A stretch of DNA of 64,000 bases, from positions 22,425-86,424 of the forward strand of contig CALXVH010000002.1 of the NCBI GenBank assembly GCA_944391965.1, written 5' to 3'. How positions within the stretch are numbered: position 1 is the first letter of the stretch; every line of letters starts with the position of its first letter. Source of the DNA: an uncultured Clostridia bacterium. GTDB lineage: Bacteria > Bacillota > Clostridia > TANB77 > CAG-508. The position numbers and the translations under genes were made by a program. A model generated the notes under the pieces. That model was given only the letters and a program-made list of their open reading frames with translations, was not told the origin of the DNA and did not search any database. Below are positions 9,009 to 63,003 of this stretch, one piece after another.

Positions 9009-9074
9009 AATACTTCCTTTCTAGATAAAATATCTTTTTACATTTGTTATATGTTGACTAAAATTATAATATCT

Positions 9075-46400: not shown

Positions 46401-49400
46401 TTGGCTACTATATGTATAACCACCTATCATATATCCACCATCTGTAGTTTTAGTTACACTTGTTAATACTTCATCCAATGTTCCTCTTATAAATTTGCTA
46501 CTATTAATTGTACTAGAGTTTATATCATATTCTATAATTATTCCGTCATAATTACCTTTTGTTTTTACTGTTTGTGCTGTTCCTGTGTAATTACCTACAA
46601 TTATAGCTTTTCCATTATCTAATCTTGCAACTGCATTTGCATTAAAGTCTAGTTCGCTTCCTGCAGTTACACTACCATTTGAGTATAAATCTATTCTACC
46701 TGTAGTTGTATCTGTTAATCCTTGGCTTACTATTATGACATCTTGGCTATTATATCCATCCATATCTGAAATTTGTACATTTGCACTTATTGTTGTTTCA
46801 CCATTTATGCTTCCATCTGTATTAGTATACTCTATAACTTTTGGATTTTCGCCAGTTGTAACACCTGCAACGATATTTCCTTCCAATTTTTGTGTTAATG
46901 CTGTTACATCATAATCTAATCCTTCTTGTGCAACTTCTTTAGCCCATTCATAACTTCCACTACTACTTAGTTTTATTACTATACCTTTTAAGTCGTTTGT
47001 AGTATTTGTTAAACCTGTACTTACTTCTCCTACTTGTAAATTTGTACCTGTAAAGCTTCCTCCTACTACATAACCACCATCATTTGTTTGAATTACTTTA
47101 TGTAATATAACTTCTCCTGATTCTGTATATACAGAATTTGCAATTTCCATATTACCTTCTTTGCTATATTTTGCAATAAAGCCAGAATAATATGAATCGT
47201 TTCCTTTTACATCTGCTAATCCATCATTGTTTAAATCAGCTTCTTTTGTAAAATATCCACTTGTTACAAATCCGTTATCTGTAGTTGATTCTACAGCTTC
47301 TACTTTATTCCACAAATCTCCTGCAACACTTGTATTAAATGATGTTCCAAATTCTGTTTCTTGTGCTTTACTTGCACCAATACCAAAATAATATGTTCTA
47401 TCTGCTTCATTTTCTGCAAGTTCGTAGCCTTCTGGTGCTTCTATTTCGGTTGCTTTATATAACCCTGCTTTTAACCCATAAGAAATTTCACCATTTTCGT
47501 CTGTTTTTACTACTGGGATTTGTGTATTCATTCCTTCTAGTTTTATATTTTTTACAAAACCAGAATCTAAACCTTCACTGTTAGAACCATCTGTTCTGTA
47601 TGTAAATGCAATTTTATATGTGCCTGCTTCTAATTCTTCTGTTACAGTTTCGAAACTTAAGTCGTTATAATCTGTAATAGAAGAATTTCCACCAATTTTA
47701 GTTGATGTTCCTCCTATTGTAGAATTATCCTTTGTATTTGTAATTGTATAATATACATAATCATAACTTGCACTTTCTGAAGATACTGCCCATTCAAAGC
47801 TAATATTTCCGTCTTTTTCTAGTGTAAATTCTTTTGATGTCATTGTACTTGTTTTGCTTGTTAGGCCAGAAATTCCACTTTGATATGTTCCATCCTCTAA
47901 CTTAGACCATGGATATGTTTCCTCATCTAATGGGAATGTAATACTACCTGCTCCAACGTTTTCTTCTAATGTACCTACAACATTTCCATTAATATCTTTT
48001 GCAAATCCTAATTCATTATAATTTTCATCTATTTCTTTTATAACAAATTTAGCATTTTGAATTGGAAGTTTTGTTGCCCCATCTATTTTTGTTATTTTAA
48101 ATAATGGCTCATCTTCGAATTCTAAGTTTATAGTATTATCTTGTACACTACTATTACGTAAGAAATTGTCTCCTAATACTTCTAATTCTAAAGCTCCTTC
48201 TGTATTTCTTTTTACTCTAAATTGTAGTTCTCTAGAATCTAGCGCATATCCTTCTGGTGGAGTAATTTCTTGAAGTGTATATACTCCAGTAATGTTCTTT
48301 CCTTCTACATATTCGTAAAGGTTTGGAATTGTGAGTATTCCTGTATCATCTGTTGTATATGTTGCTCCTTTTTCGTCAATTCCTTCGCCTGTTATTTTAT
48401 ATTGTGCACCTTTTAATGTTGTGTCTTCTTCTTTTGCAAATTTCTTTACAGTAACTTGGTATGTAGGTATTTTTTCGTTTGTAAGTTCTGCTGTTACAGT
48501 ATCTTGTGCATCTAACCCTGTTACACCTGTTCCTGTTGTAACTTGTGAAGTACTATTAAAGCTTCCACTTGTAACTACAAACTCTAATTTTCCAGAATTA
48601 TTTACAACTTTAAATTTAACTGGTGTTTCGTTTACATAGTAATCTTTAGCCTCTGTTTCTGTTAATGTATATTCTACATCATGAGAAAGTCCTGTTAATG
48701 TTAAAGTTCCTTCTTTATTTGTTGCAACTGTAATACCATTTCCTAGTCCTTCTCCCTCTAGCTTATACTTTACACCTGCTAAAAGACTGCTATCTGCACC
48801 ATCTTTTTTAGTTAAAATAACTTTATATTTTGGTGTATTTTCTACTTTAAAGTTTAGTATTCCTCTAGAGTCTGCTGTTGCTTGTGTAATGCTATATTCT
48901 TTTAAAGAATCTTGACCTTCTAGAATTTGTAATACTAACTTATCATCTTGTACTGTTACTTTGAATTTAACTTCTGTTTCGTTCTTTTCGTATGAACCTG
49001 GTGTACGAATTTCTTTTAATATATATGTTTTATCAACAAATAAATTTTGAATTGTAAATGTTCCAGAATTATTTGTTGTTCCTAGTTTTGTTTCATCTTC
49101 GCCTTCTGCTGTTATACTAAATGTTGCTCCTTGTACAGGTACTGTAGTATCTTCTTTTACCTTTTGCATATTGAAATGATATTTTCTTTCTATTCTAAAT
49201 CCTAGTTTTGTTGTTTCTGTTTGTGTTTTAAATTTTCCTTCTGCTGTATCTAGGCAGAAATATACTGCGTGTGCACTATATGAAACATCATTATAGCTTA
49301 CTGTACTTGGTACTTTTATTTGATATGTAAATACTCTATTTTCTTTTACATTTAGTACATAATCGCCTAAATCAATTAGATATGTTTTTACTTTAGAAAA

Positions 49401-52010
49401 GTCTGGTGTAGTTGTCCAACCATTTTCGCCATCATTTAAGTCTGTTGTTGGATTTTCTTTTTCTGAATAATACACTGTAACTTTATCTTTCATATCTTCT
49501 GGTACTGTTATTCCACCATCTACCATTTGTGTAGTATAGTTTGAACCTAGGTCTGTTCCATTTATGGAGAAAGTATTTCCTTTAAATGGGATTTTTCCTA
49601 ATATGCTAACTTCGCTTATTGTTCCAGAATAATTATTTGTTACACTTACATTTACTGTAGCTGTATCTGCTTCTGTTTTGTCTATTGTTGCAATTTGTGG
49701 TGCAACTGCTGTTTCGCCTGCTTCATTATAATTTGTAGCTTGTTGATTTGTTAAAAGTGAACTTGGTGCTACTATATTTAATGTATCTGTTGCATAATTA
49801 ACATTCTCTGTTACATTTTCGTCACCATCTACATCATATATATCTGCTGTTGTATTTTTATAATTATTGCAGAATTCGTTATATGCATATAGTTTTACAC
49901 TTTTGGATTGTGTTACAGATCTTGGATCTGCTGTTAAGTTTGTATTAATTGTAATTGTATAATTTGCTTCGTTTTCGTTTTCTGTTTCTATTTTAATAAA
50001 TTTCTTTCCGTCTTGTTCTACTATTTCGTATGCTAATAGTTTTACACTAGAGTTAGAAATATTTACACTATTTATTTCTACATCTAAAACTTCTTCTGGT
50101 AATTCTACTAAAAATCTACCATTTGTCCAACCTTTCATATTGTAATAATCATTACGTGTAGTAATAGTTAAGTCTATATCTTTTTCTGTATTTTGAGTTC
50201 CTATTGTATCTCTATTTACTGTAATGCTTGCAACTGATATTGGTTCTTCATAACGAGCATTTGCAGTATCATCATTTATTTTTGTATATTCTGTACTTCC
50301 TTCTATTTTTACATTTCCTGTTAAATATGTATATACATATTCTAATTTATCAAATTCTTCTTTTGTAAATGTTGATGTTAAAACATTATCATCTATCTCT
50401 TTAATATTGTATACATAGAAACTAGCATTTTTATTTGCTTTACTTGTTTCAACTCTTATATGTTTTACTGGTTCTTCATACATATATGGTGATGAACTAC
50501 TATAATTATTCCAATCTTCTTTTGTAAATGTATGTATTTCTTCTCCTGTTTCATCATTTATAACTTTTATGTATCCATCTTCACCTAATGTATTTTCTAC
50601 ATTTGAAAAATATATACCAGTATTTTTTGTATAGTCTGACATATTAAAATATGTTCCTTCTGTATTTAAAAATCTATCTGTATATGGTGTATTAGTTTCT
50701 TTCATTTGGATAGAATCTACATTTATTTGATCTCCTGTATATGCATACCATCTTACTTCGTATAAATCTTCTGTTTCTTCTGCTGTTTCATTATATATTT
50801 TTAGAGGTTCTTCTTTAGATATTATATAATTATAATCATAACTTCTATATTTTCCAATTGTTACATCAAATCTTGCTACACTTCCTTCTGGCTTTCTCCA
50901 TAGAAATGTTATATTTCTTTCTGCTATATTTGATTGTATTGGATTTTGGAATTCGTCATTTGGATTGTTAAATCCTTCATAATATGCTTTTACTGGAACT
51001 TGTAAGCTTAATGTATCTCCTGTTAAGCTTTCGTATAGTTCATATGGATATGTTACTTTAAAATTAAATGTATTATAGTCTGATACTGTTTTTGTAACTA
51101 TTCCTGCTTCGTTTATAGAGGCTTCTCTTGTAATTGTGAAGTTTCCTGTTTCTTCGTCATATTCAAAATTTACATCACTAGAAGTTAATTCTACACTTGT
51201 TGGTTTATATCCATTTACTGTTGGTATTGTTCCTTCTAAAACTGCTTTTTTTAGTATTAAATCGTCTGTTGTTTCTCTTGTTGTTACACTAAAGTTTAAT
51301 GTTATATTTTCTTTATTTTCGTCTGTTATTTCTTCTATATTTTGTGTACCTGTATAGTTATAGATACTTGCTGTAACACTTCCATACCAATCCACATTAA
51401 AATCTACTGTTTTACTTATTTGTGTTTCAGTTCCGTCATCTGCTATATGTTTACCAGTAAGTACTACACTGTTTACTTGGCTATATTTATTTGTATCATT
51501 TCCAAAATTAGAGGCATTTACTGTACCATATATTAATTTTTGTGTTCCGTTATTTACATCTTTTAATGCGATTTCTGTTGTATTATTTGATATATAGTTT
51601 TGTTTTATAACATTATCTTCTACTATTGCTGTAGATAGGTTCATATTAGATGTTTTTATAGTTATTTTTCCATCTACTAATTTACCATTTGTTAGTACAT
51701 TTAGGTTCATGTATAGTGTATCTGTTTTATTTATATCCCTACACATTCCACGTACTTGTTCTGCGTAACCATCTCCGTCTAAGTCACGCAAAAAGAACGC
51801 ATCAAATTGAACATAGTCTGTATTTGGTACCTTTTCGTCACCTTCTTGTACTTGTTCATATTCCATGCTTTTTTGTATTTCTGGGTCTGCTAATAATTTA
51901 GCTTTTTGGTTTTGTGTATTAACCAGCAGTGCAACTACTGTTATTATTGCTGTTACTACTGCTAATACACTAATTGATAATGTTATCTTTTTCGTTCGTT
52001 TCCCTTTCAT
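40443..52010 (-). CDS. Giant multidomain cell-surface adhesin (3855 aa)
   Basis: N-terminal signal/anchor. Repeated SpaA/Cna-B-like modules (e.g. VQGATFSITAEGE...YILKEIRTPGSYE). SBBP-like beta-propeller repeats (DGGYVVGGSFTG, DGFVIKYDSDGNQAW). Listeria-Bacteroides-type repeats (GGTITGEDEAPYETVEYGKDS...). About 15 MucBP-like repeats (VxVHYxxxGT...YxT....GYxL...GT......VxYYY). DUF11-like repeats (VTYTVRIKNEGN...VRDTLPAGITF). C-terminal hydrophobic helix plus a KRQKKKINKK tail. Confidence 0.85.
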   Translation of the reverse strand: MKGKRTKKITLSISVLAVVTAIITVVALLVNTQNQKAKLLADPEIQKSMEYEQVQEGDEKVPNTDYVQFDAFFLRDLDGDGYAEQVRGMCRDINKTDTLYMNLNVLTNGKLVDGKITIKTSNMNLSTAIVEDNVIKQNYISNNTTEIALKDVNNGTQKLIYGTVNASNFGNDTNKYSQVNSVVLTGKHIADDGTETQISKTVDFNVDWYGSVTASIYNYTGTQNIEEITDENKENITLNFSVTTRETTDDLILKKAVLEGTIPTVNGYKPTSVELTSSDVNFEYDEETGNFTITREASINEAGIVTKTVSDYNTFNFKVTYPYELYESLTGDTLSLQVPVKAYYEGFNNPNDEFQNPIQSNIAERNITFLWRKPEGSVARFDVTIGKYRSYDYNYIISKEEPLKIYNETAEETEDLYEVRWYAYTGDQINVDSIQMKETNTPYTDRFLNTEGTYFNMSDYTKNTGIYFSNVENTLGEDGYIKVINDETGEEIHTFTKEDWNNYSSSSPYMYEEPVKHIRVETSKANKNASFYVYNIKEIDDNVLTSTFTKEEFDKLEYVYTYLTGNVKIEGSTEYTKINDDTANARYEEPISVASITVNRDTIGTQNTEKDIDLTITTRNDYYNMKGWTNGRFLVELPEEVLDVEINSVNISNSSVKLLAYEIVEQDGKKFIKIETENENEANYTITINTNLTADPRSVTQSKSVKLYAYNEFCNNYKNTTADIYDVDGDENVTENVNYATDTLNIVAPSSLLTNQQATNYNEAGETAVAPQIATIDKTEADTATVNVSVTNNYSGTISEVSILGKIPFKGNTFSINGTDLGSNYTTQMVDGGITVPEDMKDKVTVYYSEKENPTTDLNDGENGWTTTPDFSKVKTYLIDLGDYVLNVKENRVFTYQIKVPSTVSYNDVSYSAHAVYFCLDTAEGKFKTQTETTKLGFRIERKYHFNMQKVKEDTTVPVQGATFSITAEGEDETKLGTTNNSGTFTIQNLFVDKTYILKEIRTPGSYEKNETEVKFKVTVQDDKLVLQILEGQDSLKEYSITQATADSRGILNFKVENTPKYKVILTKKDGADSSLLAGVKYKLEGEGLGNGITVATNKEGTLTLTGLSHDVEYTLTETEAKDYYVNETPVKFKVVNNSGKLEFVVTSGSFNSTSQVTTGTGVTGLDAQDTVTAELTNEKIPTYQVTVKKFAKEEDTTLKGAQYKITGEGIDEKGATYTTDDTGILTIPNLYEYVEGKNITGVYTLQEITPPEGYALDSRELQFRVKRNTEGALELEVLGDNFLRNSSVQDNTINLEFEDEPLFKITKIDGATKLPIQNAKFVIKEIDENYNELGFAKDINGNVVGTLEENVGAGSITFPLDEETYPWSKLEDGTYQSGISGLTSKTSTMTSKEFTLEKDGNISFEWAVSSESASYDYVYYTITNTKDNSTIGGTSTKIGGNSSITDYNDLSFETVTEELEAGTYKIAFTYRTDGSNSEGLDSGFVKNIKLEGMNTQIPVVKTDENGEISYGLKAGLYKATEIEAPEGYELAENEADRTYYFGIGASKAQETEFGTSFNTSVAGDLWNKVEAVESTTDNGFVTSGYFTKEADLNNDGLADVKGNDSYYSGFIAKYSKEGNMEIANSVYTESGEVILHKVIQTNDGGYVVGGSFTGTNLQVGEVSTGLTNTTNDLKGIVIKLSSSGSYEWAKEVAQEGLDYDVTALTQKLEGNIVAGVTTGENPKVIEYTNTDGSINGETTISANVQISDMDGYNSQDVIIVSQGLTDTTTGRIDLYSNGSVTAGSELDFNANAVARLDNGKAIIVGNYTGTAQTVKTKGNYDGIIIEYDINSSTINSSKFIRGTLDEVLTSVTKTTDGGYMIGGYTYSSQVDFNQEETTWEIPSISGDSDGFVIKYDSDGNQAWYKQVTGDNLDEVTGVAERDENEFVAVGYFNSTTVKGDTADSQGASLSKYSDGFVFNYGEIITAPEVPESSEITIENNLKKFQITTDIEEVDGVKGGTITGEDEAPYETVEYGKDSTKEIKIVPDENYKIVKITVNGENYEFTPAEDGSFTMPQFTNMQTNKHIVVTFSNTASSVLVHHYIDGTQTKVAEDEHIAGTIGESYTTAPHMDLEEYELKQVDGEYVIPDNASGTFKQEEQVITYYYVKKQVPLTVHHYIEGTNEQVPLASGELAQDVITKGEIGTEYTTVALTPEELNPKYELSITPENANGIYTKDGVVVTYYYKAKKVEVTTAVQTHKETNEMGEEVDVAGGTISGQNQNPYETVIYGEDSQNDIVAVPDENYQVKQILINGESIEFTAEDDGTVILNKFTDMTEDKHVVVEFEKIPAKVIVHYYIEGTTDKVPLQDGGTADDVTQTGVVGDIYATKPADNVNSMYELISTPTNASGTMTKDTIEVIYYYKLKATSVLVHHYKENTTEKLSNDVTINGKVGDSYTTQVATDIPQNYELVTTPTNATGTMTEDQIVVIYYYRLKTPSVTNNITKTGTDRITVANQEMSYTVTYTANVTDYIGNAEVTIVDTLPYAIDEAKSDLAGGTYDSASKTITWKENVSDINSYTGNGTVNVTKTFKVVYVDLDMNQEKVVNNVKGNIKLLTPEKTSEEVTGSQESTIYKAIISSEKLVDKTEAIEGEKVTYTVRIKNEGNLAKTVTVRDTLPAGITFDKDTLIKVGETGTVYTEQNLKNGIPVEVPANGSIDVVFAGKVDTLASNEYSKTLTNQATVDNEPTNEVTTNVTKANITAHKESDPASGSKVRFGDEITYRIRVRNDGTREGTAIIKDTVPTGTTFVEGSVKIDNVADSTKTATDLQNGINVTIGVGAEKVVEFKVTVNKLIDGTKIKNTAYINQNGEDKKVPEEPEHTYVEPKEEQSISKNGTATIDSLNGEITYNINYTARITDYSGRATVKLIDTLPYAIDEARSDLAGGTYDAQAQTITWEEPVENIQITEEKEITVNKTIKVVYKDVSPDVVSIKNVVTGHIEYETPVMTSDEVTANATTTTGFTVNIPVSKVWEDDSNKLGQRPTKVVFKLHGSDGSEYTKEVAKPGTAGSTTTQDSTNPNKWNDIFENLPKYDENKQEIVYTLTEEEKTEGDLRYYDSIVIDKTVTNTNKYGKVTVHHYIMNTDGSTTTTRVPDANGTEIADVVIEGKEGTSYETEAATNINEKYELVAEKLPANATGTIEKYNEEKPQEVIYYYRLKPAKVLINYLEKDEDTDDSNNVVLSSQEQITGYVDDSYNTDTDHRKETIEKDGKTYTLVSDSGNKTGNMTLQDITVTYYYLQNTKATVRYVERNPETHEIVKDLEEPTVKEGLVGDKFVTNSKDFVGYKLVESPEKTTIEMTKEEQTLIYYYEPVYTGLIENHIDDKTGKVLYTESHDVQVGEDYDIPSKEFEGYDLVESKLPENAEGTMGEELVTVNYYYIKKAVLEVNYIDKLTGEPLADQVVDDTKHEGDSYTTEEKVFDGYDMIEIQGNKEGTMIVETDEQGNITNNRTIVTYYYAKKSAGVEEHHIDLRTGEELEEPTLHQGHIGDEYNIPSKDFLSYQVVTVDEEGNSMLPTNSIGTMTEEKIVVNYYYNQPAKVIVHYVEKATGKEIEETNPETGELQNSQVLIEGQKDDDYTATAKEFEYYTLIEKPQEEQGKMKVEIVKDEEGNDVVNNTIELYYYYEAKPFNIGVDKEITGIIVNGERREPTNGKIEKVEIYRKSTEETSVQVEYKIKVSNTGEVSGNATIEENIPEGMRLANNDGTWEEQEGKLIKVIPELGAGETKEYTVLLNWEQTGENMGEKTNEVKLVGTGNVPGFVDNNDKDNTANANVIISVETGELPIGLIIALVGLVGLETVTLRYAVVLTKRQKKKINKK

Positions 52011-52044: not shown

Positions 52045-53322
52045 TTAATTTTTTGATTTGTTATAATTTTGAATTTTTTTGTTGCTTAGTATTACTTTAT
52101 ATAAAGTGCGGAACGACAACCGTACGTAGCTGAAGTAGTTAGTCGGACCGTAGTAGTTACGATAGTCTGCTGGATATCTGTCGCCATCTTTCTTGTAATG
52201 GCCACCCCTACACACCCTGTTGATGGAACTGCTGGCCTCCATTGTCCAGTCCCACACATTACCTGCTAGGTCGTATATGTTATTTGCTTTCGTGTATTCT
52301 GTACTTCCTGTTGGAATTCTTGTACTACTTCCCTCATTTTTCGTTGCTGTACTTCCACTACTATTTACATATTCAAATGTCGCATTGTTATAGTTTCCCC
52401 AACTTGTTGAGTCATCTGCTATTTGCTCTTTTGTTTTACTTCCTGTCTCTATTAACCACATCAACGTTCTATCCCATTGGTTTCCCCATATCATTCCTGT
52501 TTCTACATTTGTATTGTCTCCTTTAATGTTTTTACATCTTTTATACATGTTGTACCATGTTTGAAAATTTATATCTGTGTTTCCTTTTTGTACTACTGGT
52601 GTTTCTTGGTTTATATTTCCTGTTTCATATCTTCCTATATAGAATCCTCCATACTTTTCTACACTTACTATCATATTATTAAATTCTTTTTCTAGCTGAT
52701 TTAAAAATTCATGGGTTGTTTTGGCTCCTAGTCCTCTAGTTTTTAAAGTTGAATCATAATCATAGCTTTTTACTATATCCGGCTCTCTATAACTCGTTTT
52801 ACTACTTATTGTCATTACTCCATCGCTTTCGCTCCAGTTATATGGTTTCGTTCCTGTTATTTCATCATAACTACTACTCATACTTGACGAAAACTGATAT
52901 TGTTTTCCCCATTTCTTTCCATTGGCATCAGTTCCATAGAATTTACTTATATCTGGTACTGGTATCCACACATATTGGTTTCTACTTTTTTGTGCATCAG
53001 CTACATTGCTGTCTGTTACTTCTTCTTCTCCTTCGTATATTACATATCCTGTATCTATTTCATTTTCTCCTGCCACACTACTTCCTACATATCCGTTTGG
53101 TACTGGTACTTTATCTCCACTTGCATCTTCTTCTACGTGCATATGCTCATTATTTTCCAAATTTATGGCGTTTACAGTTGATTTTGTAGCTTGTAATACA
53201 GTACTATTCTCTTTTTTAGAAAATGCAAAAATTAAACTTGTTAAAACTACTATAACTGCTAATATTCCGCAAATTATGCATACCATTTTTCTATTTATTT
53301 GCTTTCTTGTTTTCTCAGCCAT
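52045..53322 (-). CDS. DGR target protein 1: membrane-anchored FGE-sulfatase/C-type-lectin-fold protein carrying VR1
   Basis: N-terminal TM helix (VCIICGILAVIVVLTSLIFAF). C-terminal GMIWGNQWDRTLMWL ... NIYDLAGNVWDWTMEA ... RVCRGGHY is the FGE/CLec hallmark. The last about 44 structured residues align to the TR. Confidence 0.85.
   Translation of the reverse strand: MAEKTRKQINRKMVCIICGILAVIVVLTSLIFAFSKKENSTVLQATKSTVNAINLENNEHMHVEEDASGDKVPVPNGYVGSSVAGENEIDTGYVIYEGEEEVTDSNVADAQKSRNQYVWIPVPDISKFYGTDANGKKWGKQYQFSSSMSSSYDEITGTKPYNWSESDGVMTISSKTSYREPDIVKSYDYDSTLKTRGLGAKTTHEFLNQLEKEFNNMIVSVEKYGGFYIGRYETGNINQETPVVQKGNTDINFQTWYNMYKRCKNIKGDNTNVETGMIWGNQWDRTLMWLIETGSKTKEQIADDSTSWGNYNNATFEYVNSSGSTATKNEGSSTRIPTGSTEYTKANNIYDLAGNVWDWTMEASSSINRVCRGGHYKKDGDRYPADYRNYYGPTNYFSYVRLSFRTLYKVILSNKKIQNYNKSKN
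52105..52237 (-). repeat. DGR variable region VR1
   Basis: 133 nt aligning without gaps to the TR. My hand count gives 27 mismatches, 19 at TR adenines (coding sense) and 8 elsewhere. Confidence 0.8.
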
Positions 53323-53366
53323 TTCAATTTCTCCTTTAAGAATCTTTTTAAGCTCTGTTGATTTTT

Positions 53367-53395
53367 ATTTTATTTATAAATAAATAACTTGTAAA
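53367..53395 (-). promoter_or_regulatory. Sigma-A-type promoter candidate for target gene 1
   Basis: The minus strand reads TTTACA, a 17-nt spacer, then TAAAAT, about 45 nt upstream of the start codon. The same element occurs upstream of target 2. Confidence 0.45.
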
Positions 53396-53512
53396 TGGCT
53401 GTATTTTCTATATTACAACGACATCATTAAAAACATGTTACGGATATACAAATTACGATTTTTCTATTGGCATCTTTACATTTTTTTATCTTTTATGTAT
53501 CAAAATGACTTT

Positions 53513-53767
53513 TTAATCTAAAAACTTAAAATTATATATTTCTATAATCTCAACTTGCATATTTTCTCTCAGTCTTCCTCTTAAAAAAAACTCTTCTAAA
53601 TCTTTTTGATATATGTAATCTGCTATGTTATCATACGCAAACACCTCTATTTCCGAATTATTTAATAACTTTGCTTTAAATAAAACTTTTGATTTTTCTT
53701 TACTATTTATTACAAATTTAAAATTTATATCACTTGTTCTTTTTACAAATAAAAAACATTCATTCAT
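53513..53767 (-). CDS. Small hypothetical protein (84 aa) conserved in both repeat copies
   Basis: ...SEIEVFAYDNIADYIYQKDLEEFFLRGRLRENMQVEIIEIYNFKFLD is about 85% identical to the ORF at 57396-57587. It vaguely recalls an OB-fold/SSB pattern. No clear RBS. Confidence 0.35.
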   Translation of the reverse strand: MNECFLFVKRTSDINFKFVINSKEKSKVLFKAKLLNNSEIEVFAYDNIADYIYQKDLEEFFLRGRLRENMQVEIIEIYNFKFLD

Positions 53768-53987
53768 AATTATTTGTTAAAATTCTTAGCAATTATTAAC
53801 TAAAATCATAAAACGATACTTTTTCCTAATCTTTTAGGAAAGGGCTTAAAATACATACTTTCGTCATACCTACCGGTATATATTTTAATGATTCATATTT
53901 ACCTAAAATAGGAAGGAATAAACCTCTTTAATATCTAATATTTCGCTGGACTACTTCCTTAAAACTAGCCATCTGGATTGATATTAG

Positions 53988-54120
53988 AGTGCTGCACGAC
54001 AACCGTCTGTTGCTATTGTTGTTAGTCGGATTGTTGTTGTTACGATTGTCTGCTGGATTGTTGTCGCCATTGTTGTTGTAATTGCCACCCCTATACGCCC
54101 TGTTGTTGGTACCGTTGGCC
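53988..54120 (-). repeat. DGR template repeat (TR)
   Basis: Starts 13 nt after the RT stop codon. In coding sense it reads gcc aac ggt acc aac aac agg ... aac aga cgg ttg tcg tgc agc act. My hand count gives about 51 adenines in 133 nt and 18 AAY codons in 44. It aligns to VR1 and VR2. Confidence 0.9.
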
Positions 54121-54133
54121 TTTTGGTCTATCC

Positions 54134-55144
54134 CTAATTTATATAAAAAAGTTTTTCTTCCAAATTCCTTGTATTTGCATATTTCATATAACCTAAATGT
54201 CCACATATAAATCTACTTGCTTCTTTACTACTCATATTGCCCTTTTGTACTTCTTTTTTTAAATATTTAACCTTTTGTTTAATAGCTTTTTTACCTCTGT
54301 CGCGTAGCTTTAAACGATATTCATTTATCTTGTATCCACAAAAATTTACTCCTTGATCACTTTTAAATATTTGGGTTTTGTCGTTTAATTCTAATTCCAA
54401 TTTTATTTTTAAATAATTTTTAATTTTTTCTAAAAGTTCAATGGCTTCTTTCTTTGTTTTTACAAATAAAATCGAATCATCCATATATCTAAAATAGTAT
54501 TTTACCTTAAGCTCGTGCTTTATATATTGGTCTATTTCGTTTAAGTATATATTTGCAAATATTTGCGAGGTATAATTACCTATCGGAAGTCCTTTTTTAC
54601 CTGAATTTGAATACACTATTTTTTCTAATAGTTCTACTAGTTTTTCTTCTTTTACTTTTCTTTTTAAAATATTCATTAAAATATCTTTATCTATATTCTG
54701 AAAATATTTTCGAATATCCATTTTTAAAATATAGTAATTTTGCCATATTCTTTTGCAATGCTTCATTGTATTTTGTACATCCATAGATGCTTTATGCATT
54801 CCTCTATTTTTTATACACGCATATGATGTATTTATAAATTGATTTACAAAATATCTATTTAAGAAACTATCTACTATCCATCTATGTACAATTCTATCCA
54901 TATATCGTGAAGCTTCTATTTTTCTTCTTTTAGGATACTGTATATAAAAAATTCTATATCCGCCATGTTTATAAGTTCCGTTTTTTAGCTGTTCATATAA
55001 CCATCTGATATATTCTTCTTGTTTTAGATTAAATAGAATTACTTCTTTTTTATAGTTTTTTCCTTTTCTAGAAAGTAAATGTGCTTTCATAAGATTGTCA
55101 TAAGTTAAATATTTATCAAATTCATGCCTTATTGTTTTTGCCAT
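54134..55144 (-). CDS. DGR-type reverse transcriptase
   Basis: 336 aa with RT motifs ILKMDIRKYFQNI (A), GLPIGNYTSQIFANIYLNEID (B, containing the DGR-specific [I/L/V]GxxxSQ), FRYMDDSILFV (C, YMDD) and VNFCGYKI (E). There are no intron-maturase or endonuclease extensions. Confidence 0.9.
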   Translation of the reverse strand: MAKTIRHEFDKYLTYDNLMKAHLLSRKGKNYKKEVILFNLKQEEYIRWLYEQLKNGTYKHGGYRIFYIQYPKRRKIEASRYMDRIVHRWIVDSFLNRYFVNQFINTSYACIKNRGMHKASMDVQNTMKHCKRIWQNYYILKMDIRKYFQNIDKDILMNILKRKVKEEKLVELLEKIVYSNSGKKGLPIGNYTSQIFANIYLNEIDQYIKHELKVKYYFRYMDDSILFVKTKKEAIELLEKIKNYLKIKLELELNDKTQIFKSDQGVNFCGYKINEYRLKLRDRGKKAIKQKVKYLKKEVQKGNMSSKEASRFICGHLGYMKYANTRNLEEKLFYIN

Positions 55145-55496
55145 AGTATTTTACTAAGCCTCCTATTATTTTTCCCATTTCGTATATTAGGCTCATGGCA
55201 TATTCGAATTTTTTCTTATCTATCCATGCGTTTTTACACATGATTCTTAACAAAATTCTTTGAACACTTAAATCTGCATCAATTTTATTGATACTTTTAA
55301 ACCTATCTTTTATTTCTATTTTGTTTAAGTACATTATGCCTTCTAACATCTTATACATAGAATTCTTGTATTCTGTTCCTATACTAAATTTTTCTGTTCT
55401 TGGAATTTTTAATATTACTTCTAGCATATATTCAATATATCTTTCGGATTTTGGAATTAATGTTAATTCATTTTCTTTTTTATTTAACTTTTCCAA
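55122..55496 (-). CDS. avd: Avd-like accessory variability determinant (four-helix-bundle family)
   Basis: 124 aa, helical and basic. It overlaps the RT start by 23 nt and the upstream gene by 17 nt. The pattern YIEYMLEVILKIPRTEKFSIGTEYKNSMYKMLEGIMYLN fits the Avd / 23S-rRNA-IVS protein family. The start appears to be TTG. Confidence 0.7.
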   Translation of the reverse strand: MEKLNKKENELTLIPKSERYIEYMLEVILKIPRTEKFSIGTEYKNSMYKMLEGIMYLNKIEIKDRFKSINKIDADLSVQRILLRIMCKNAWIDKKKFEYAMSLIYEMGKIIGGLVKYYGKNNKA

Positions 55497-55875
55497 GCTT
55501 TCTCACTCTTTCTAATATATCTTCTTCCTGTTCTTTTCTGTTTGTACAACTTGTACATTCTAAACAGTTTTTGGTTTCCTCAGTATTTTTACCTTTGTAT
55601 CTATATATTTCTTCTAATTCATCTTTTTCGTTTTTTATATATAAAATAAACGAATAGCCTAGTTTCTCTAACTTCTCTATATATTTCTCTACATTTTTTA
55701 CTAAAAATCCTACTTTACACAGTTCTTTTCGCATACAAGTTAGTTTTAAGCCTAATTCTTCATTTAAAATTATTGCATCTTTTCCTATTGCTACAAAAAA
55801 TATTCCATTTTTTGCTAATATTATTGTACCTTCATTTTCTTTTTGTATTTTTTCCACTTCTTGGACGAATTTCAT
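55480..55875 (-). CDS. MutS-domain-I-like small accessory protein with a C-terminal Cys cluster
   Basis: 131 aa. [33 protein letters not shown] aligns by eye to E. coli MutS [60 protein letters not shown] aligns to [26 protein letters not shown]. The tail is [12 protein letters not shown]. Confidence 0.65.
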   Translation of the reverse strand: [131 protein letters not shown]

Positions 55876-55971
55876 ATTTTATTTTCCTCCACATAAACAC
55901 AAATTATTAATTTTCTATTATTTAAACTTCTTTACTTGTTATAGTGCATCGCTACCAGGGCTCAGTATTAC

Positions 55972-57213
55972 TTAATATAAAGTGCTGCACGACAACCGTA
56001 GGTAGCTAGCGCCGTCAGTAGGAACGTCGTTGCTACGATCGTCAGCTGGAACGTAGTCGCCATAGTTGCTGAAATTGCCACCCCTAGACGCCCTGTAGCC
56101 GGTACCGTAGGCCTCCATTGTCCAGTCCCTTACGTTTCCGACTAGGTCGTATATGTTATTTGCTTTCGTGTATTCTGTACTTCCTGTTGGAATTCTTGTA
56201 CTACTATTTTTGTTTTTCGTTGCTGTACTTCCACTATTATTTACATATTCAAATGTCGCATCGATATAGTTTCCCCAACTTGTTGAGTCATCTGCTATTT
56301 GCTCTTTTGTTTTACTTCCTGTTTCTATTAACCACATCAACGTTCTATCCCATTGGTTTCCCCATATCATTCCTGTTTCTACATTTGTATTGTCTCCTTT
56401 AATGTTTTTACATCTTTTATACATGTTGTACCATGTTTGACTACTTATATTTGTATTTCCTTTTTGTACTACTGGTGTTTCTTGGTTTATATTTCCTGTT
56501 TCATATCTTCCTATATAAAACCCTCCATATTTTTCTACACTTGCTACCATATTATTAAACTCTTTTTCTAACTGATTTAAAAATTCATGAGTTGTTTTGG
56601 CGCCTATTCCTAATGTTTTTAATCTTGAATCCATATCATAACCTGTACTACTATATTTTGCTACTACGTCTGGCTCTCTATAATTTGTTTTACTACTTAT
56701 TGTCATTACTCCATTGTTTTCGCTCCAATTATATGGCTTTGTTCCTGTTATTTCATCATAACTACTACTCGTACTTGACGAAAATGTATATATTTTTCCC
56801 CATTTCTTTCCATTGGCATCTGTTCCATAAAATTTACTTATATCTGGTACTGGTATCCACACATATTGGTTTCTACTTTTTTGTGCATCAGCTACATTGC
56901 TGTCTGTTACTTCTTCTTCTCCTTCGTATATTACATATCCTGTATCTATTTCATTTTCTCCTGCCACACTACTTCCTACATATCCGTTTGGTACTGGTAC
57001 TTTATCTCCACTTGCATCTTCTTCTACGTGCATATGCTCATTATTTTCCAAATTTATGGCGTTTACAGTTGATTTTGTAGCTTGTAATACAGTACTATTC
57101 TCTTTTTTAGAAAATGCAAAAATTAAACTTGTTAAAACTACTATAACTGCTAATATTCCGCAAATTATGCATACCATTTTTCTATTTATTTGCTTTCTTG
57201 TTTTCTCAGCCAT
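55972..57213 (-). CDS. DGR target protein 2: membrane-anchored FGE-sulfatase/C-type-lectin-fold protein carrying VR2
   Basis: A paralog of target 1 with an identical N-terminal ~140 aa, NIYDLVGNVRDWTMEA and RASRGGNF. I place the start at the ATG at 57213 (MAEKT), 8 nt after AAGGAG, as in copy A. Confidence 0.85.
   Translation of the reverse strand: MAEKTRKQINRKMVCIICGILAVIVVLTSLIFAFSKKENSTVLQATKSTVNAINLENNEHMHVEEDASGDKVPVPNGYVGSSVAGENEIDTGYVIYEGEEEVTDSNVADAQKSRNQYVWIPVPDISKFYGTDANGKKWGKIYTFSSSTSSSYDEITGTKPYNWSENNGVMTISSKTNYREPDVVAKYSSTGYDMDSRLKTLGIGAKTTHEFLNQLEKEFNNMVASVEKYGGFYIGRYETGNINQETPVVQKGNTNISSQTWYNMYKRCKNIKGDNTNVETGMIWGNQWDRTLMWLIETGSKTKEQIADDSTSWGNYIDATFEYVNNSGSTATKNKNSSTRIPTGSTEYTKANNIYDLVGNVRDWTMEAYGTGYRASRGGNFSNYGDYVPADDRSNDVPTDGASYLRLSCSTLY
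55981..56113 (-). repeat. DGR variable region VR2
   Basis: 133 nt aligning without gaps to the TR. My hand count gives 26 mismatches, 24 at TR adenines. The 3'-terminal 19 nt (acggttgtcgtgcagcact) are identical to the TR. Confidence 0.9.
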
Positions 57214-57251
57214 TTTCATTTCTCCTTCAAGATTTTATATTATATATATTT

Positions 57252-57280
57252 ATTTTATTTATAAATAAATAACCTGTAAA
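57252..57280 (-). promoter_or_regulatory. Sigma-A-type promoter candidate for target gene 2 and possibly the msl-avd-RT-TR transcript
   Basis: The minus strand reads TTTACA, a 17-nt spacer, then TAAAAT. Confidence 0.45.
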
Positions 57281-57395
57281 TGGCTGTATTTTCTATATTA
57301 CAAAAACATTGTTAAACTTTATTACGGGTATACAAATTACGATCTTTTTATTTTCTTTTTTACATTTTCTTGTTTTTTTTGTATCAAACCATTTT

Positions 57396-57611
57396 TTATT
57401 CTAAAAACTTAAAATTATATATTTCTATAATTTCAACTTTCATATTTTCTTGTAGCTTACCCCTTAAGAAAAACACTTCTAAATCTTTTTGATATATATA
57501 ATCTGCTATGTTATCATATATAAACACCTCTATTTCCGAATCATTTAATAACTTTGTTTTAATAAAACTTTTGATTTTTCTTTGCAATTTATTACAAATT
57601 TAAAATTTATA
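57396..57611 (-). pseudogene. Frameshifted and truncated copy of the small ORF at 53513-53767
   Basis: It has a 1-nt deletion relative to copy A (gctttaaataaaac versus gttttaataaaac on the plus strand). The upstream part (NINFKFVINCKEKSK) is in a different frame and is preceded by a stop codon. Only a 63 aa TTG-initiated ORF remains. Confidence 0.5.
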
Positions 57612-57979
57612 TTCCTTATCCTTATTTACTATGTTAATGTTATCGCTTTCTTATTTTCTGAATATTATTCTGCATTCTTTAAACCAGTATAGTATAATCA
57701 TGCCTATTAATCTAAACTTCTTTCTCTCATATTATATTGATTTTGCATTATTAATAAACATAGGAATCTTCTATGTATTTCTTTTTTACTTTACATTTTG
57801 GATTTTTAAGAAATATATTTCTTTGAATTAAATTATTCTTGAACCATTGAATTAAATATTCATTGATAGCTTATTAAAGAATTTCTAATAGTATATACGA
57901 TATTTAAACATAAAACTAAATATTTTTTAAACTATTTCACATGTCTTTTTTCAGCAAAATTACTTATTTGCTAATAATT

Positions 57980-58064: not shown

Positions 58065-59765
58065 TTATAAATTGTCTTTATATTCTTCTAATCTCGCTTT
58101 AATTTCACTAGCAGATGACATCCTTAAAATCTCTTGAACTAATTTCTTACATTCTTTGTGATTTAAATTTCTAATCATCTTTCTAGAATTTAATATTTTG
58201 GTAGGATTCATAGAAAACTCATCTAATCCTAATCCAACTAAAAGAGGTATAAATCTTTCATCAGCAGCTGCTTCTCCACACATTCCGCAGAAAATCTTAG
58301 ATTTGTGTGCTCCGTCGATTGCCATTTTTATTAAACGTATAACTGCAGGATGAAATTTAGTATATAAATCTGATATTCTTTCATTTCCTCTTTCAACTGC
58401 AACAGTATATTGAATTAAATCATTTGTACCAATACTAAAGAAATCACATTCTTTTGCCAACTCATCTGCCATTATTGCAGCTGATGGAATCTCTATCATT
58501 ATTCCAACCTTAACATTTTTATCAAATTTTACTTTTTCTGCCTTTAATTCTTCTTTAACTTCATTTATGATATCTTTTGCAGCTCTTAGCTCATCTACAG
58601 AAGAAATCATAGGAAGCATAATTGCAAGTTTTCCGTAAATACTTGCTCTATATAAAGCTCTTAATTGAACTTTAAAAATTTCTGGTTCGCGTAAACAAAT
58701 TCTAATTGCTCTGTATCCTAAAAAAGGATTATCTTCTTTTTCTAAATTTAAATATTTTAAGTCTTTATCTCCACCAATATCCAATGTGCGAACTATAACT
58801 CTTTTACCTTCTGATTTTTCTAGCACCTCTTTATATGCTTCAAATTGTTCTTCTTCTGTTGGCATAGTATCAGAATCCATATATAAAAATTCGCTTCTAA
58901 ATAAACCTACTCCCTCTGCACCATTTTCGATAACTGCATCCATATCCTTAGGAGTTCCTATATTAGCCACTACTTCTGTTTTATATCCATCTTTAGTAAT
59001 GCTCTTCTTATTCCTAAATTTCGCTAAACTTCCTTTTTCGTCCTTTAACTCATTTTGGATTTTTTCTAATTTAGCGACCTCATCTTGTGAAGGATCTAAA
59101 AATATTTCTCCAGTTCCTCCATTTATTGCAATATACATGTCGTTAGCTATGCTATCTAAAGCTCCTTTAGCTCCAACTATTGCAGGAATCTCGTGAGTTC
59201 TTGCCATAATTGAAACATGTGAATTTTCACTACCATTTTCTATTATAATTCCTGCAACAGAATTCAAATTTAATTTAGCTGTATCTGATGTAGATAAGTC
59301 TTTTCCGACTAAAATAGTCTTTTCTGGTAAATTACTTAAATCCAACTCAGCTTTATTAATAATTTTATTTATGACTTTATTTTTCATGTCTTCTATATCA
59401 GATGCTCTTGCAGACATATATTCGTCGTCCATATTCTTAAAAACTTCTTCGACAGTTTCAAAGCCTACTTTTGCAGCATATCCTGCATTATATCCATCTT
59501 CCTGTATTAGTCTTTCTGTTTCCTCAGTTAGTGTAGGGTCCTGTAATATCATCAAATAAGCATTCATAATATCTGCTTCTGTTCCAGAAAGTTTTTCTAA
59601 AACTTCCCTAGTATCTTCTATTACATTATTTAGACATTTTTTAAAATAACTTAATTCATTTTCTTTATCTTCAACTTTAAAATCAGTAAGTTTTACTTCT
59701 TCATTCTTTAATACTTTTGTATGTCCAATCCCAATACCCTTTGATACACCTTTACCTTTTACCAT
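58065..59765 (-). CDS. ptsI: Phosphoenolpyruvate-protein phosphotransferase (PTS Enzyme I)
   Basis: 566 aa with the active-site His region GSENSHVSIMARTHEIPAIVG, GTNDLIQYT and CGMCGE. Confidence 0.92.
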   Translation of the reverse strand: MVKGKGVSKGIGIGHTKVLKNEEVKLTDFKVEDKENELSYFKKCLNNVIEDTREVLEKLSGTEADIMNAYLMILQDPTLTEETERLIQEDGYNAGYAAKVGFETVEEVFKNMDDEYMSARASDIEDMKNKVINKIINKAELDLSNLPEKTILVGKDLSTSDTAKLNLNSVAGIIIENGSENSHVSIMARTHEIPAIVGAKGALDSIANDMYIAINGGTGEIFLDPSQDEVAKLEKIQNELKDEKGSLAKFRNKKSITKDGYKTEVVANIGTPKDMDAVIENGAEGVGLFRSEFLYMDSDTMPTEEEQFEAYKEVLEKSEGKRVIVRTLDIGGDKDLKYLNLEKEDNPFLGYRAIRICLREPEIFKVQLRALYRASIYGKLAIMLPMISSVDELRAAKDIINEVKEELKAEKVKFDKNVKVGIMIEIPSAAIMADELAKECDFFSIGTNDLIQYTVAVERGNERISDLYTKFHPAVIRLIKMAIDGAHKSKIFCGMCGEAAADERFIPLLVGLGLDEFSMNPTKILNSRKMIRNLNHKECKKLVQEILRMSSASEIKARLEEYKDNL

Positions 59766-59786
59766 ATTTATCTCCTCTTTTGTTTA

Positions 59787-60050
59787 TTATTCTCCAAAAT
59801 TATTTTTAAAAGCTTCTTCTATTTCTTTCATTGCTTCTTCTTCTTTTTCTCCATCACATTGTACTTCAACATCTGTCTTTTGTTTTATTCCTGCTGACAT
59901 AATCATTAATGGAGATTTTGCATTTACAGTTTTGCCATTAGCTATTAATTTAACATCACATGGATATTTCATAGCTATTTTAGCAAGTTCTGTAGCAGGT
60001 CTTGCATGTAAACCTGTCTCGCTTTCCAAAGTAAAAGTTTTATTTAGCAT
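59787..60050 (-). CDS. ptsH: Phosphocarrier protein HPr
   Basis: 87 aa with ETGLHARPAT (His15 region) and NAKSPLMIMSAG (Ser46 region). Confidence 0.9.
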   Translation of the reverse strand: MLNKTFTLESETGLHARPATELAKIAMKYPCDVKLIANGKTVNAKSPLMIMSAGIKQKTDVEVQCDGEKEEEAMKEIEEAFKNNFGE

Positions 60051-61972
60051 TTTTTACTTCATCTCCTTTACCCCAAACATTCTTCTTTAATGCTGCTAAT
60101 ATAAACATTGCAACTAAAGAACCAATTACAATTGATAGTAAATATAATGCTGCATTTCCTACAACTGGTAAAACAAATATTCCTCCATGTGGAGCCATTA
60201 ATGTACAATTAAATAACATTGATAAAGCTCCTGAAACTGCTGAACCTATTACGCAAGAAACAATTACACGAATTGGATCTGCTGAAGCAAATGGTATTGC
60301 ACCTTCTGATATAAAAGAGAATCCCATAATGTAGTTTAATAAAGCAGATTGTCTATCTTTCTTTGGTAATTTTTTAGGGAAAAATGTTGCAAGTAATGCA
60401 ATTGCAAGTGGTGCTACCATACCACCAGCCATAACTGCTGCCATTATATCATAATGTCCTTCTGCAAGCATTCCTGTTCCAAATGTATATGATGCTTTAT
60501 TAACAGGTCCACCTAAATCAACAGACATCATTCCACCTAAAATTGCTCCTAAAATTATCTTATTTGCTCCTTGCATTGATGATAAGAAATTATTTAATGC
60601 TGTATTAATTGCTCCAACTACTGGGTTAATTGCAAGCATTATTAATCCTATTAAAAGAATACCACCAACTGGATAAATTAATATTGGTTTTACACTTTCT
60701 AAACTCTTTGGTAAGAAAGAAAATACTTTTCTTAATAAAAGAACTACATATCCACCAATGAAACCTGCAATTAATGCTCCTAAAAATCCAGAACTTACTA
60801 ATGTAACATCTGAATTTGTTAAAGATGCAAAAGTTGTTCCTGCTTTTGCAACAGCTCCGTCCTACGAAACCTACAGCTAAACCAGGTCTATCTGCTATAC
60901 TCATTGCTATATATCCAGATAAAATACATAGCATAAAATCAAATGCCATATCACCTATTGTTTTAAAGAATGATGCTATTGGTGTATTCTTACCAAAATT
61001 TGCTGGGTTTAAAGAATAATCATCTAGTAAGAAAGCTATAGCAATTAATATACCTCCACCAACAACAAATGGTAACATATGTGTTACACCATTCATTAAG
61101 TGTCTATATATTCTGCTTCCTACACCATCTGAGTTTTCATATTCTGAATCATCTTTTCCGTTTCCTTGGTACACTGGAATATTTTTATCTGTTAAAGCCT
61201 TTTCTATTAATTCTTTTGGTTTGTGAATTCCGTCTGCAACTTTTGCTTTTAGTACTTTCTTTCCTTTAAATCTTGATAAATCAATATCTATATCTGCTGC
61301 AATTATTATTGCTTTTGCATTTTTTATTTCTTCTTTTGTTAATTTATTTTTAACACCAGATTGTCCTTGTGTTTCTATTTTAACAAGATGTCCTACTTCT
61401 TTACCTGCAGCTTCTAGAGCTTCTGCAGCCATATAAGTATGCGCAATTCCTGTAGGGCAAGCTGTTATTCCTAATATTTCATAACCTTGCTCTTGTTTTG
61501 TTTCTTCTTTAAATTTCTCATTTTCTGTTTCATTTATTATATTTAAAAATTCTTCTTTGCTTTTAGCTGAAGTTAATTTATTTTTAAACTCTGTATCCAT
61601 TAGCATTGTAGATAATCTACTTAATACATCTAGATGTACATTATCACTAGTATTTGGAGCAGCTATCATAAATAATAAATTAACTGGCTTACCATCTAAC
61701 GCATCATATTCAACTCCGTTTGGCACTACCATTGCAACTAAGCCTGGTTCAGTTACACAATCACCTTTACCATGTGGAATTGCAATTCCTTCTCCAACAC
61801 CAGTACTTCCTTCTTCTTCTCTTTTTAATACAAGTTCTTTGTATGCGTTTAAATCTGTAATTCTTCCTGTTTTTAGCATTAATTTTGTCATCTTGTTAAT
61901 TATATCATTTTTATCTTTTGCATTTACATTAAGCTCGATTCCATCTTTGCTTAATAAATCTGTAATTCTCAT
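60040..61972 (-). pseudogene. fruA: PTS fructose-specific EIIABC, interrupted by a +1 nt frameshift
   Basis: The IIA domain (GIAIPHGK), IIB domain (ACPTGIAHTYMAAEAL) and the start of IIC lie in ORF 60626-61972. The rest of IIC (LGGPVNKASYTFG...) lies in ORF 60040-60639. Removing the plus-strand G at 60859 restores ...ADRPGLAVGFVGGAVAKAGTTFASL...LIMLAINPVVGA. Confidence 0.75.
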
Positions 61973-61987
61973 TTTCTTCCTCCTTTG

Positions 61988-62890: not shown

Positions 62891-62974
62891 TTTCTCCCCT
62901 CCTATCTTTTGTTAAATTTTCATAGTAATTCTATCATATATCATTATTATTTACAATTATTATATTTTTTATTA

Positions 62975-63003
62975 TTGACAAGGCTAACATTTTTTATTAT
63001 AAT
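62975..63003 (+). promoter_or_regulatory. Perfect-consensus sigma-A promoter
   Basis: TTGACA (62975-62980), exactly 17 nt of spacer, then TATAAT (62998-63003). It lies 50 nt upstream of the ATG at 63053, which has an AGGAG RBS. Confidence 0.65.

Follow-up and report, generated by a model that had tools for sequence, protein, structure and literature searches.

Does the diversity-generating retroelement (DGR) carried by an uncultured Clostridia bacterium still rewrite its targets, and does it rewrite both of them alike? We analyzed the whole of a 64-kb stretch of its DNA (contig CALXVH010000002.1, positions 22,425 to 86,424; hereafter the window), in which the features of the cassette lie on the minus strand between 52045 and 57611. 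Read along that strand, the order is target 2 with its variable repeat (VR2), msl, avd, the reverse transcriptase (RT) gene, the template repeat (TR), an RT-14 RNA, a small open reading frame (ORF), target 1 with VR1, and the gene of a giant surface protein. We conclude, with a probability of roughly 85%, that this is a functional DGR of the Avd plus MSL class on the chromosome of a gut Clostridia bacterium that is uncultured and low in GC, in which VR2 is active and VR1 is a static duplicate.

The core of the cassette comprises the DGR RT gene (54134-55144; 336 aa; Pfam RVT_1, 1.6e-20), whose product carries IGNYTSQ and YMDD, together with avd (55122-55496; 124 aa; Pfam bAvd, 1.6e-18) and the MutS domain-I-like accessory gene msl (55480-55875; 131 aa; Pfam MutS_I, 6.7e-9). 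The NCBIfam model DivGenRetAVD also matches the avd product (2.9e-20), at 72.5 bits and so below its 80-bit cutoff. Overlaps of 17 nt and 23 nt join msl, avd, and the RT gene, and TR begins roughly 12-13 nt after the RT stop codon. With a MutS_I-like gene and avd in the cassette and no HRDC match among its ORFs in a Pfam scan, the locus belongs to the MSL class (Architecture D). The ORF list, a repeat search, and Pfam bear out the coordinates, overlaps, and motifs given in a preliminary description of the locus, and a computational TR/VR alignment bears out its claim of a complete DGR with adenine-biased repeats. The gene order, which that description called unusual, matches the catalogued B2/D architectures and is standard in ~80 related loci. 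The promoters it had called are consensus matches only, and such promoter-like sites number 19 in the region, where 35.8 are expected by chance; no terminator-like site was found in the region scanned.

A 137-nt repeat is present in three copies, TR (53985-54121), VR1 (52102-52238), and VR2 (55978-56114), and the 64-kb window holds no further copy. Each VR is ~80% identical to TR. There are 27 mismatches between TR and VR2, of which 24 fall at TR adenines, and 28 between TR and VR1, of which 19 do. Of the 53 adenines of TR, 49 stand at codon positions 1 or 2, and 18 codons are of the form AAY. VR2 ends the C-terminal FGE/C-type-lectin-like domain of target 2 (55972-57219; 415 aa), which also has an N-terminal hydrophobic segment; from this segment a type-II membrane anchor is predicted for the targets. 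VR1 lies in target 1 (52045-53322; 425 aa), a paralog of target 2; mutation of its own stop codon leads to a read-through of 17 residues in target 1.

The evidence that carries the main conclusion comes from ten metagenome contigs (L001-L010) that encode an identical RT and all have the same synteny. Eight of them share an identical TR; in the other two, L004 and L005, the 3′ end of TR is replaced. Linked to this unchanged TR are four VR2 alleles (five with the L004/L005 form), polymorphic at 39 TR-A sites vs. only three non-A sites. When the four alleles are pooled and compared with TR, 39 out of 53 A positions differ, against four out of 84 non-A positions (P = 6e-18, Fisher's exact test). 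The same comparison for VR1 gives 21 out of 53 and 14 out of 84 (P = 0.004). One contig, L003, is close to isogenic with the window: over ~16.5 kb there are 88 differences, 28 of them in VR2 and only two outside both targets, the rest being patches shared within the two target paralogs. Of the 28 VR2 differences, 27 are at TR-A sites. Given A-restricted alleles on an identical RT and TR, and given this isogenic contig, the sequences indicate that VR2 is being diversified at present. In a more distant relative, L012 (95% RT identity), TR carries 12 changes, and VR2 follows the non-A ones.

At the protein level, 4647 relatives of target 2 were found; the best 120 of these are 87-98% identical to it, are mostly singleton clusters, and have 117 distinct C-termini, whose entropy lies only in codons with a TR adenine. 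The exact target 2 is absent from a collection of 15 billion proteins, and the exact RT is present on 35 contigs (exact RT, MSL, and small-ORF proteins on 35-90). Across strains the DGR core is 100% conserved, and all ORFs are intact.

Two further features appear in comparisons among strains. Relative to L003, the same 20-substitution patch appears in both target paralogs of the window (56959-57100 and 53068-53209), which would point to gene conversion between the duplicates, to their concerted evolution, or to an assembly effect. The core at 53400-55910 (msl-avd-RT-TR-RT-14) is 100% identical among strains that, in many 250-nt bins of the ptsI/PTS (phosphotransferase system) flank at 58200-63000, share no more than 80-96% identity; such a mosaic suggests recent recombinational spread or a sweep of the cassette.

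Polymorphism almost confined to TR-A sites, which the preliminary description proposed to look for at both repeats, is found at VR2 across contigs and not at VR1, which is invariant across samples. All samples have one VR1 sequence save for its last ~12 nt, and the VR1 peptide is identical in seven database proteins. From these sequences we conclude that VR1 appears quiescent in this strain cluster, with a low rate possible. Target 1 arose with a 1.66-kb duplication (52084-53744 and 55960-57626) that is seen in the window's lineage only; the next-closest relative, L013 (90% RT identity), has no target 1. In other strains target 1 takes 408-aa and 360-aa forms. A truncated copy of the small ORF (57396-57587; 63 aa, TTG start, N-terminal part gone) is probably a remnant of the duplication, and 63-aa relatives exist.

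In DGRs a recipient VR is marked at its 3′ end by an IMH-type element together with a structure downstream from it. The two VRs also differ in what lies at and beyond their 3′ ends. In the GC-rich 3′ element, VR2 matches TR at 18 out of 18 positions, and VR1 differs at two to four; TR and VR2 diverge just after this identical 18-nt element. Downstream from the VRs of many clade members stands a conserved motif, AAGTAGCACTGA-C-CTG---GCGAT-CAC, which we regard as a candidate target-recognition element. It is complete after VR2 (AAGTAATACTGAGCCCTGGTAGCGATGCAC, 55944-55973); after VR1 it is cut by the duplication endpoint, so that only the first part is kept. The likely cause of VR1 stasis is this loss, combined with the two to four differences in the GC element. 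DNA folding of the regions downstream from VR2 and VR1, in search of a hairpin or cruciform, gave weak structures only.

The ~220 nt following TR had been described as non-coding DNA. The spacing stands; the region, however, contains a structured RNA. At 53846-53989 it matches Rfam RT-14 (RF02921) over the full model, positions 1-144, at 120.9 bits (gathering threshold 48.1), and the match starts at the TR/VR homology boundary. The parts of the element are a 7-bp helix P1 immediately 3′ of TR (53981-53987 with 53935-53941; strands CUAAUAU and AUAUUAG), a hairpin of 9 bp capped by a tetraloop (53948-53970), a linker (53914-53924), and a 3′ hairpin of 13 bp. With a covariance model derived from 24 relatives, RT-14 is detected in 77 out of 79 related loci, always on the RT strand, and a search of ~1 Mb with this model gave no matches beyond those loci. 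Pairing holds in 96.6% of cells across 80 distinct sequences (33%-53% in slid controls), and 26 out of 36 pairs are compensatory; none of 500 shuffles reaches the observed values. Of the motifs in the source paper for RT-14, RT-10 alone was linked to a DGR, and the others were the subject of speculation (Weinberg et al. 2017, PMC5737381).

A second, long-range helix lies outside the Rfam model. In it, the RT-14 linker GGUUUAUUCCU (53924-53914), single-stranded in the Rfam annotation, has as its partner the TR 5′ flank AGGGAUAGACC (54135-54125), which overlaps the stop codon of the RT gene; the result is a covarying helix of 11 bp. Pairing extends to 100% of cells across 29 distinct sequences (44%-67% in slid controls), 18 cells are compensatory, and none of 500 shuffles reaches the observed score. 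The swaps include GACC/GGUU, AAUC/GAUU, AUUC/GAAU, ACUC/GAGU, and AGUC/GACU. Covariation in these sequences shows a pairing that would close TR into a loop. Compared with the Rfam family, the RT-14 described here has the full model but always abuts TR and carries this additional helix.

These features have a parallel in the Bordetella phage ribonucleoprotein, which has a 7-bp duplex between TR and the spacer RNA (Sp), a 9-bp tetraloop stem that binds Avd, and an upstream-downstream stop duplex (bioRxiv 10.1101/2023.10.23.563531). The window RNA likewise has a 7-bp duplex beside the 3′ end of TR, a tetraloop hairpin with a 9-bp stem, and a duplex that joins sequences upstream and downstream from TR, and by this analogy RT-14 is the equivalent of Sp.

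Some relatives carry more than one copy of this unit. In L026 (CAMXJY010000020.1, 4935-7224), the target and msl-avd-RT are separated by six tandem units, each made up of a AAATTAGGGATAA flank, a TR of ~140 nt, and RT-14. Framework (non-A) positions vary among the six TRs, and the VR of the target matches unit 4, differing from it at A sites only. This suggests a DGR with alternative templates, and up to six such TR/RT-14 units would imply template switching on top of adenine mutagenesis. L061 has three flank-TR-RT-14 units (4-881).

Of the three accessory ORFs proposed in the preliminary description, avd and msl were identified as such by Pfam. The third, the small ORF between RT-14 and target 1 (53513-53767; 84 aa), is refined here to a candidate mini-SSB, an OB-fold protein resembling SSBs (proteins that bind single-stranded DNA) and a candidate new DGR accessory gene. 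The alignment of its family has an SSB-like pattern; Pfam SSB is matched by 21 out of 37 members (best 5.2e-6) and the tRNA_anti-codon OB-fold by 12. Profile matches in PDB are to SSBs over the full length, although weak (E = 0.07-2). AlphaFold2 predicts an OB barrel with a five-stranded SSB-like topology (pLDDT 90.3), and the top Foldseek matches of this model in PDB are nearly all SSB or PriB (probability 1.00, TM 0.6-0.79).

Canonical SSBs bind single-stranded DNA and carry an acidic C-terminal tip. The mini-SSB ends in ...IYNFKFLD, with neither a linker nor an acidic tip. With bacterial SSB and PriB it has in common the predicted fold, which is like that of small SSBs (2hql; 3koj, TM 0.79), and the N-terminal patterns 'MN-x-hh-hG' and 'A-D...G-x-h'. 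It differs from them in its length of ~84 aa, in lacking the disordered linker and acidic tip, and in forming a separate family of ~200 clusters beside DGR RTs. One 154-aa protein on an 813-bp contig (P0278) matches the mini-SSB profile and has a Pfam bAvd domain as well, which would make it an Avd-miniSSB fusion unless the gene call is an artefact.

MSL is a truncated protein as well. In our alignment with MutS N-termini it appears to keep the Phe of the mismatch wedge and to have V, I, or L in place of the Glu, and it carries CxxCxxC near its C-terminus. A phmmer search against PDB sequences with MSL gave no match. The CxxCxxC (window 55480-55560) is conserved in MSL proteins encoded on the same strand and absent from those encoded on the opposite strand; from its sequence it may be a small metal-binding element.

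The following mechanism would account for these observations. A transcript would span the 11-nt TR 5′ flank, TR, and RT-14, and the flank-linker pairing indicated by covariation would loop out TR. By analogy with the Bordetella phage, P1 would present the priming nucleotide to RT-Avd and the 9-bp tetraloop hairpin would bind Avd. The RT would copy TR to cDNA, misincorporating at adenines, and the cDNA would replace VR2 at the 3′ end of target 2; a transfer from TR to VR2 is indicated by the A-restricted alleles on an isogenic background and by the non-A co-change in L012. The mini-SSB, an OB domain without a C-terminal interaction tail, would coat or protect the cDNA. MSL, a MutS domain I with the wedge Phe and with neither the Glu nor an ATPase, would shield the mismatch-dense heteroduplex from host MutS. 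Target 1 would be a lineage-specific duplicate that no longer receives cDNA and now encodes a fixed variant, as the stasis of VR1 across samples indicates.

The two small proteins could together form a DGR-encoded module for cDNA handling and repair evasion, in which a tail-less SSB coats the cDNA and keeps away factors recruited by host SSB, such as ExoI, and a MutS-I decoy masks the heteroduplex; this is a tentative proposal, whose chances we put somewhat below even. The roles suggested for mini-SSB and MSL are consistent with published reports on MutS, ExoI, and lagging-strand DNA. Host MutS lowers retrohoming 5-10-fold in Bacteroides (bioRxiv 10.1101/2024.11.15.621889). ExoI inhibits DGR activity noncatalytically, targets that are co-directional with replication are favored, and single-stranded DNA of the lagging strand is the likely entry point of the cDNA (PMC12875486). 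Plus-strand GC skew takes values of -0.17 to -0.29 throughout the window, which makes it probable that targets on the minus strand are co-directional with replication.

Several points weigh against this account. Activity is inferred from assembled consensus sequences, and with repeats that are 80%-93% identical, metagenome assembly can create chimeras. Other strains have VR1-type read-through genes with diversified VRs, and the VR1 of L012 differs from that of the window at A sites. The mini-SSB of the window has no match to Pfam SSB (PF00436) at E ≤ 1 and reaches no Pfam threshold, so that its assignment as an SSB rests on other family members and on the predicted structure. RNAalifold predicted no pairs in 12 post-VR sequences, where the Bordetella phage has a hairpin. 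The priming nucleotide, which would lie at about G53935/A53934, is a guess by analogy. The roles given to MSL and mini-SSB are proposals.

The alternative that survives best concerns the mini-SSB, which might be no DGR component at all but a passenger, or a factor for the neighboring surface-protein genes. Its DGR function is a proposal, the giant adhesin gene often follows it, and several related loci, mainly those of lowest RT identity (L077-L082, L084, and L089), have no detectable copy. Against this, a homolog stands beside RT-TR-RT-14 in most of the related loci that reach far enough, 73 out of 90 with RT identity down to 52%, the most distant locus that keeps it having 55%, and it does so in different chromosomal contexts. 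Where the cassette is rearranged, mini-SSB and msl are found together on the opposite strand, the two genes thus moving as a pair. A full HMMER search gives only ~200 clusters at 50% identity, nearly all of them stand-alone proteins of 70-115 aa. Four distant members (30%-44% identity) were looked up, and all four are DGR-linked: each sits 3′ of bAvd-RVT_1, directly after the RT in three, with a MutS_I gene adjacent in two and an unannotated ORF in the msl position in the other two loci; the wider neighborhoods vary, including a tRNA synthetase, rubrerythrin, and RuvAB. A passenger or surface-protein factor is on this evidence unlikely, and we retain the mini-SSB as a candidate DGR component.

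A second alternative is that both VRs are live and that VR1 merely looks static, through strong selection on one variant or through recent shared ancestry. This would fit the 19 out of 28 VR1-TR mismatches at A, the L012 VR1, which departs from that of the window mainly at A sites, and the T1-like read-through proteins of other strains with their diverse VRs. From the L012 differences and these diversified variants it follows that VR1 was once a recipient. VR1 is, however, unchanged across samples in which VR2 changed at up to 39 A sites, and half of the conserved post-VR motif is gone. Nine of its mismatches to TR are not at A; two of these, at the 3′ end, are common to VR2, and seven are private and would have been erased by homing. 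The private mismatches at positions 8 and 24 equal the TR state of the related lineages L011-L013, and VR1 therefore keeps an older version of TR. Among the other private changes are some that give N-to-K codons, which are not obtainable by adenine mutagenesis of AAC. We regard a live VR1 as improbable, and a static duplicate as the better description of this repeat.

It is more improbable still, to the point of being hardly tenable, that the DGR is a dead fossil and the VR differences an ancient divergence of paralogs. RT-14, the mini-SSB gene, and target 1 are all missing from L004 and L005, which shows that a cassette can be without them; but contigs with only two differences outside the targets over ~16.5 kb differ at 28 VR2 positions, the ORFs are intact and the core fully conserved, and metagenomes contain hundreds of singleton variants. 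In both L004 and L005, at ~9024-9240, a 3′ tail of the VR1 type is joined to the body of TR, and the adhesin start follows directly (window 54121 joined to ~52110). The junction reflects either a deletion by recombination between TR and VR1 or an assembly collapse that arose identically in two independent assemblies.

The RT itself is of the DGR type and not of the group II or retron type, as first described. Its best match in PDB is, over the full length, chain 8ub7_A (1.1e-35), which the tool labels only 'Reverse transcriptase' and which we take from its sequence to be the Bordetella phage DGR RT; the values for RTs of group II introns (2.3e-19) and of retrons (1.7e-14) are far weaker. The motif IGNYTSQ, beside YMDD, fits the DGR form [I/L/V]GxxxSQ, where group II RTs have QGxxxSP. 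That this is a group II intron, retron, or defense RT beside coincidental repeats can practically be dismissed: The best NCBIfam model is a group II RT/maturase (123.8 bits vs. a cutoff of 300, among library matches that include no DGR-RT model), but the presumed Bordetella phage RT is 16 orders of magnitude ahead of group II RTs, the DGR-specific motif and an adjoining avd are present, the RT has neither a maturase/GIIM domain nor an intron RNA, and the repeats are A-specific.

How far, then, does the locus depart from DGRs already known? Cassettes with avd-RT-TR (B2) and MSL-containing (D) architectures are catalogued, and two-target cassettes make up 13% of DGRs (Wu et al. 2018, PMC5758913). 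These DGRs and the Bacteroides Msl DGRs (bioRxiv 10.1101/2024.11.15.621889) have, like the window, a target whose VR is C-terminal, followed on one strand by msl, avd, RT, and a downstream TR. Adenine-specific TR-VR differences and a CLec/FGE-fold target are also common to the B2/D DGRs and the window; the clade described here differs from them in adding a conserved SSB-like gene of 80-90 aa after the TR RNA, and in that one of the two targets is quiescent. The described accessory classes are Avd, HRDC, MSL, and CH1, with PAG1-4 as tentative ones (PMC5758913). By description the mini-SSB is set apart from the first four, a comparison that was made outside the PAG1-4 sequences. Our search of the literature found no description that links DGRs with an SSB or OB-fold accessory, and none relevant to DGRs and RT-14.

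The DGR of Bordetella phage BPP-1 (mtd-avd-TR-brt) resembles the window locus in its RT, homologous over the full length (1.1e-35), and in the presence of Avd. It differs in several ways: The window locus is chromosomal, its TR and RNA come after the RT and not before it, the RNA is RT-14 and not RT-10, MSL and mini-SSB are additional, and after the window VR we detected no GC hairpin but instead a conserved unstructured motif. We find, then, a known kind of DGR with a new accessory component, in which the mini-SSB gene, the RT-14 assignment with its extension, and the contrast of one active target with one quiescent target are undescribed or only partly described.

The main open question about DGRs is how the cDNA finds and replaces the VR, a step in which host MutS, ExoI, and lagging-strand single-stranded DNA have been implicated. 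A clade whose DGR brings along its own truncated MutS and truncated SSB directs attention to the same steps, and offers two small proteins that can be tested. If the repair-evasion module is real, the clade encodes in cis functions that other DGRs obtain from the host or evade there, which would give a handle on cDNA integration. The two paralogous targets, a few kilobases from one TR and only one of them accepting cDNA, form a natural comparison, and the short 3′ element in which they differ could define what target recognition requires in Firmicute DGRs. The orphan Rfam motif RT-14 gains a function and an extended structure. Finally, an abundant human-gut lineage would be continuously varying a lectin-like surface protein beside the gene of a 3855-aa adhesin.

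The proposal that the targets have a lectin/FGE fold holds for the C-terminal domain at the level of the family: The target-family profile matches SUMF2 (2.7e-7), TvpA, the Treponema DGR target (8.4e-6), and also FGE, and Pfam FGE-sulfatase is matched by 21 out of 34 family members. The window protein alone falls just below the Pfam cutoff. With the FGE/SUMF-type targets, of which Treponema denticola TvpA is one, it shares, in addition to the C-terminal profile match, a VR at the extreme C-terminus and AAY codons; it differs from TvpA in its predicted N-terminal anchor, an uncharacterized middle domain, and the ending RLSCSTLY. This ending, common to both targets, goes back to one extra nucleotide at the 3′ end of the window TR (~53995-54010) relative to L011 and L013, which shifts the last eight to nine codons from the widespread GCRSALYIK. 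A hydrophobic-Arg-x pattern, similar to the 'GFR' motif of FGE, is retained in either frame.

The gene of the giant surface protein (40443-52010, minus strand; 3855 aa; Pfam domains SpaA, MucBP, and Cna_B) begins 34 nt beyond target 1. A homolog of its N-terminus lies 3′ of the mini-SSB gene in nine related loci beyond the close lineage. From this arrangement we regard the protein as a syntenic neighbor of the DGR, with any functional link as a candidate. Its C-terminus (window 40443-40560) reads ...SVETGELP followed by a hydrophobic segment and a basic tail, and in sequence resembles a noncanonical sortase sorting signal. Target ORFs of >2290 aa occur in L049, L053, L059, L063, and L073, with at least three tandem target modules of which only the C-terminal copy is at the VR position; a test for homology between these ORFs and the window adhesin was negative.

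The setting is that of a chromosome, as had been proposed: Genes of the fructose PTS and ptsI flank the cassette on one side and the giant surface protein and an ABC transporter on the other, and a blastn comparison of the locus with 50,697 phage records gave no match, which leaves a phage origin unsupported. A host that forms spores is plausible, the window containing a SpoIIE homolog (16257-18737, minus strand; SpoIIE_N, 2.1e-45). GC content is 23%-31%. The closest named genomes are metagenome-assembled genomes labelled Clostridium sp. CAG:354, and one member of the RT cluster is labelled Candidatus Merdicola. The fructose PTS EIIABC gene of the window (60040-61972, minus strand) is split into overlapping ORFs of 448 aa and 199 aa, as it is in L003 and L009; in L001, L002, L004, and L005 it is a single gene of 643 aa, and the split is a probable frameshift in the window strain. 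In a distant relative (L096/L097, 2098-4186), the DGR RT is interrupted by a group II intron ORF (RVT_1 and GIIM) beside an IS66 transposase.

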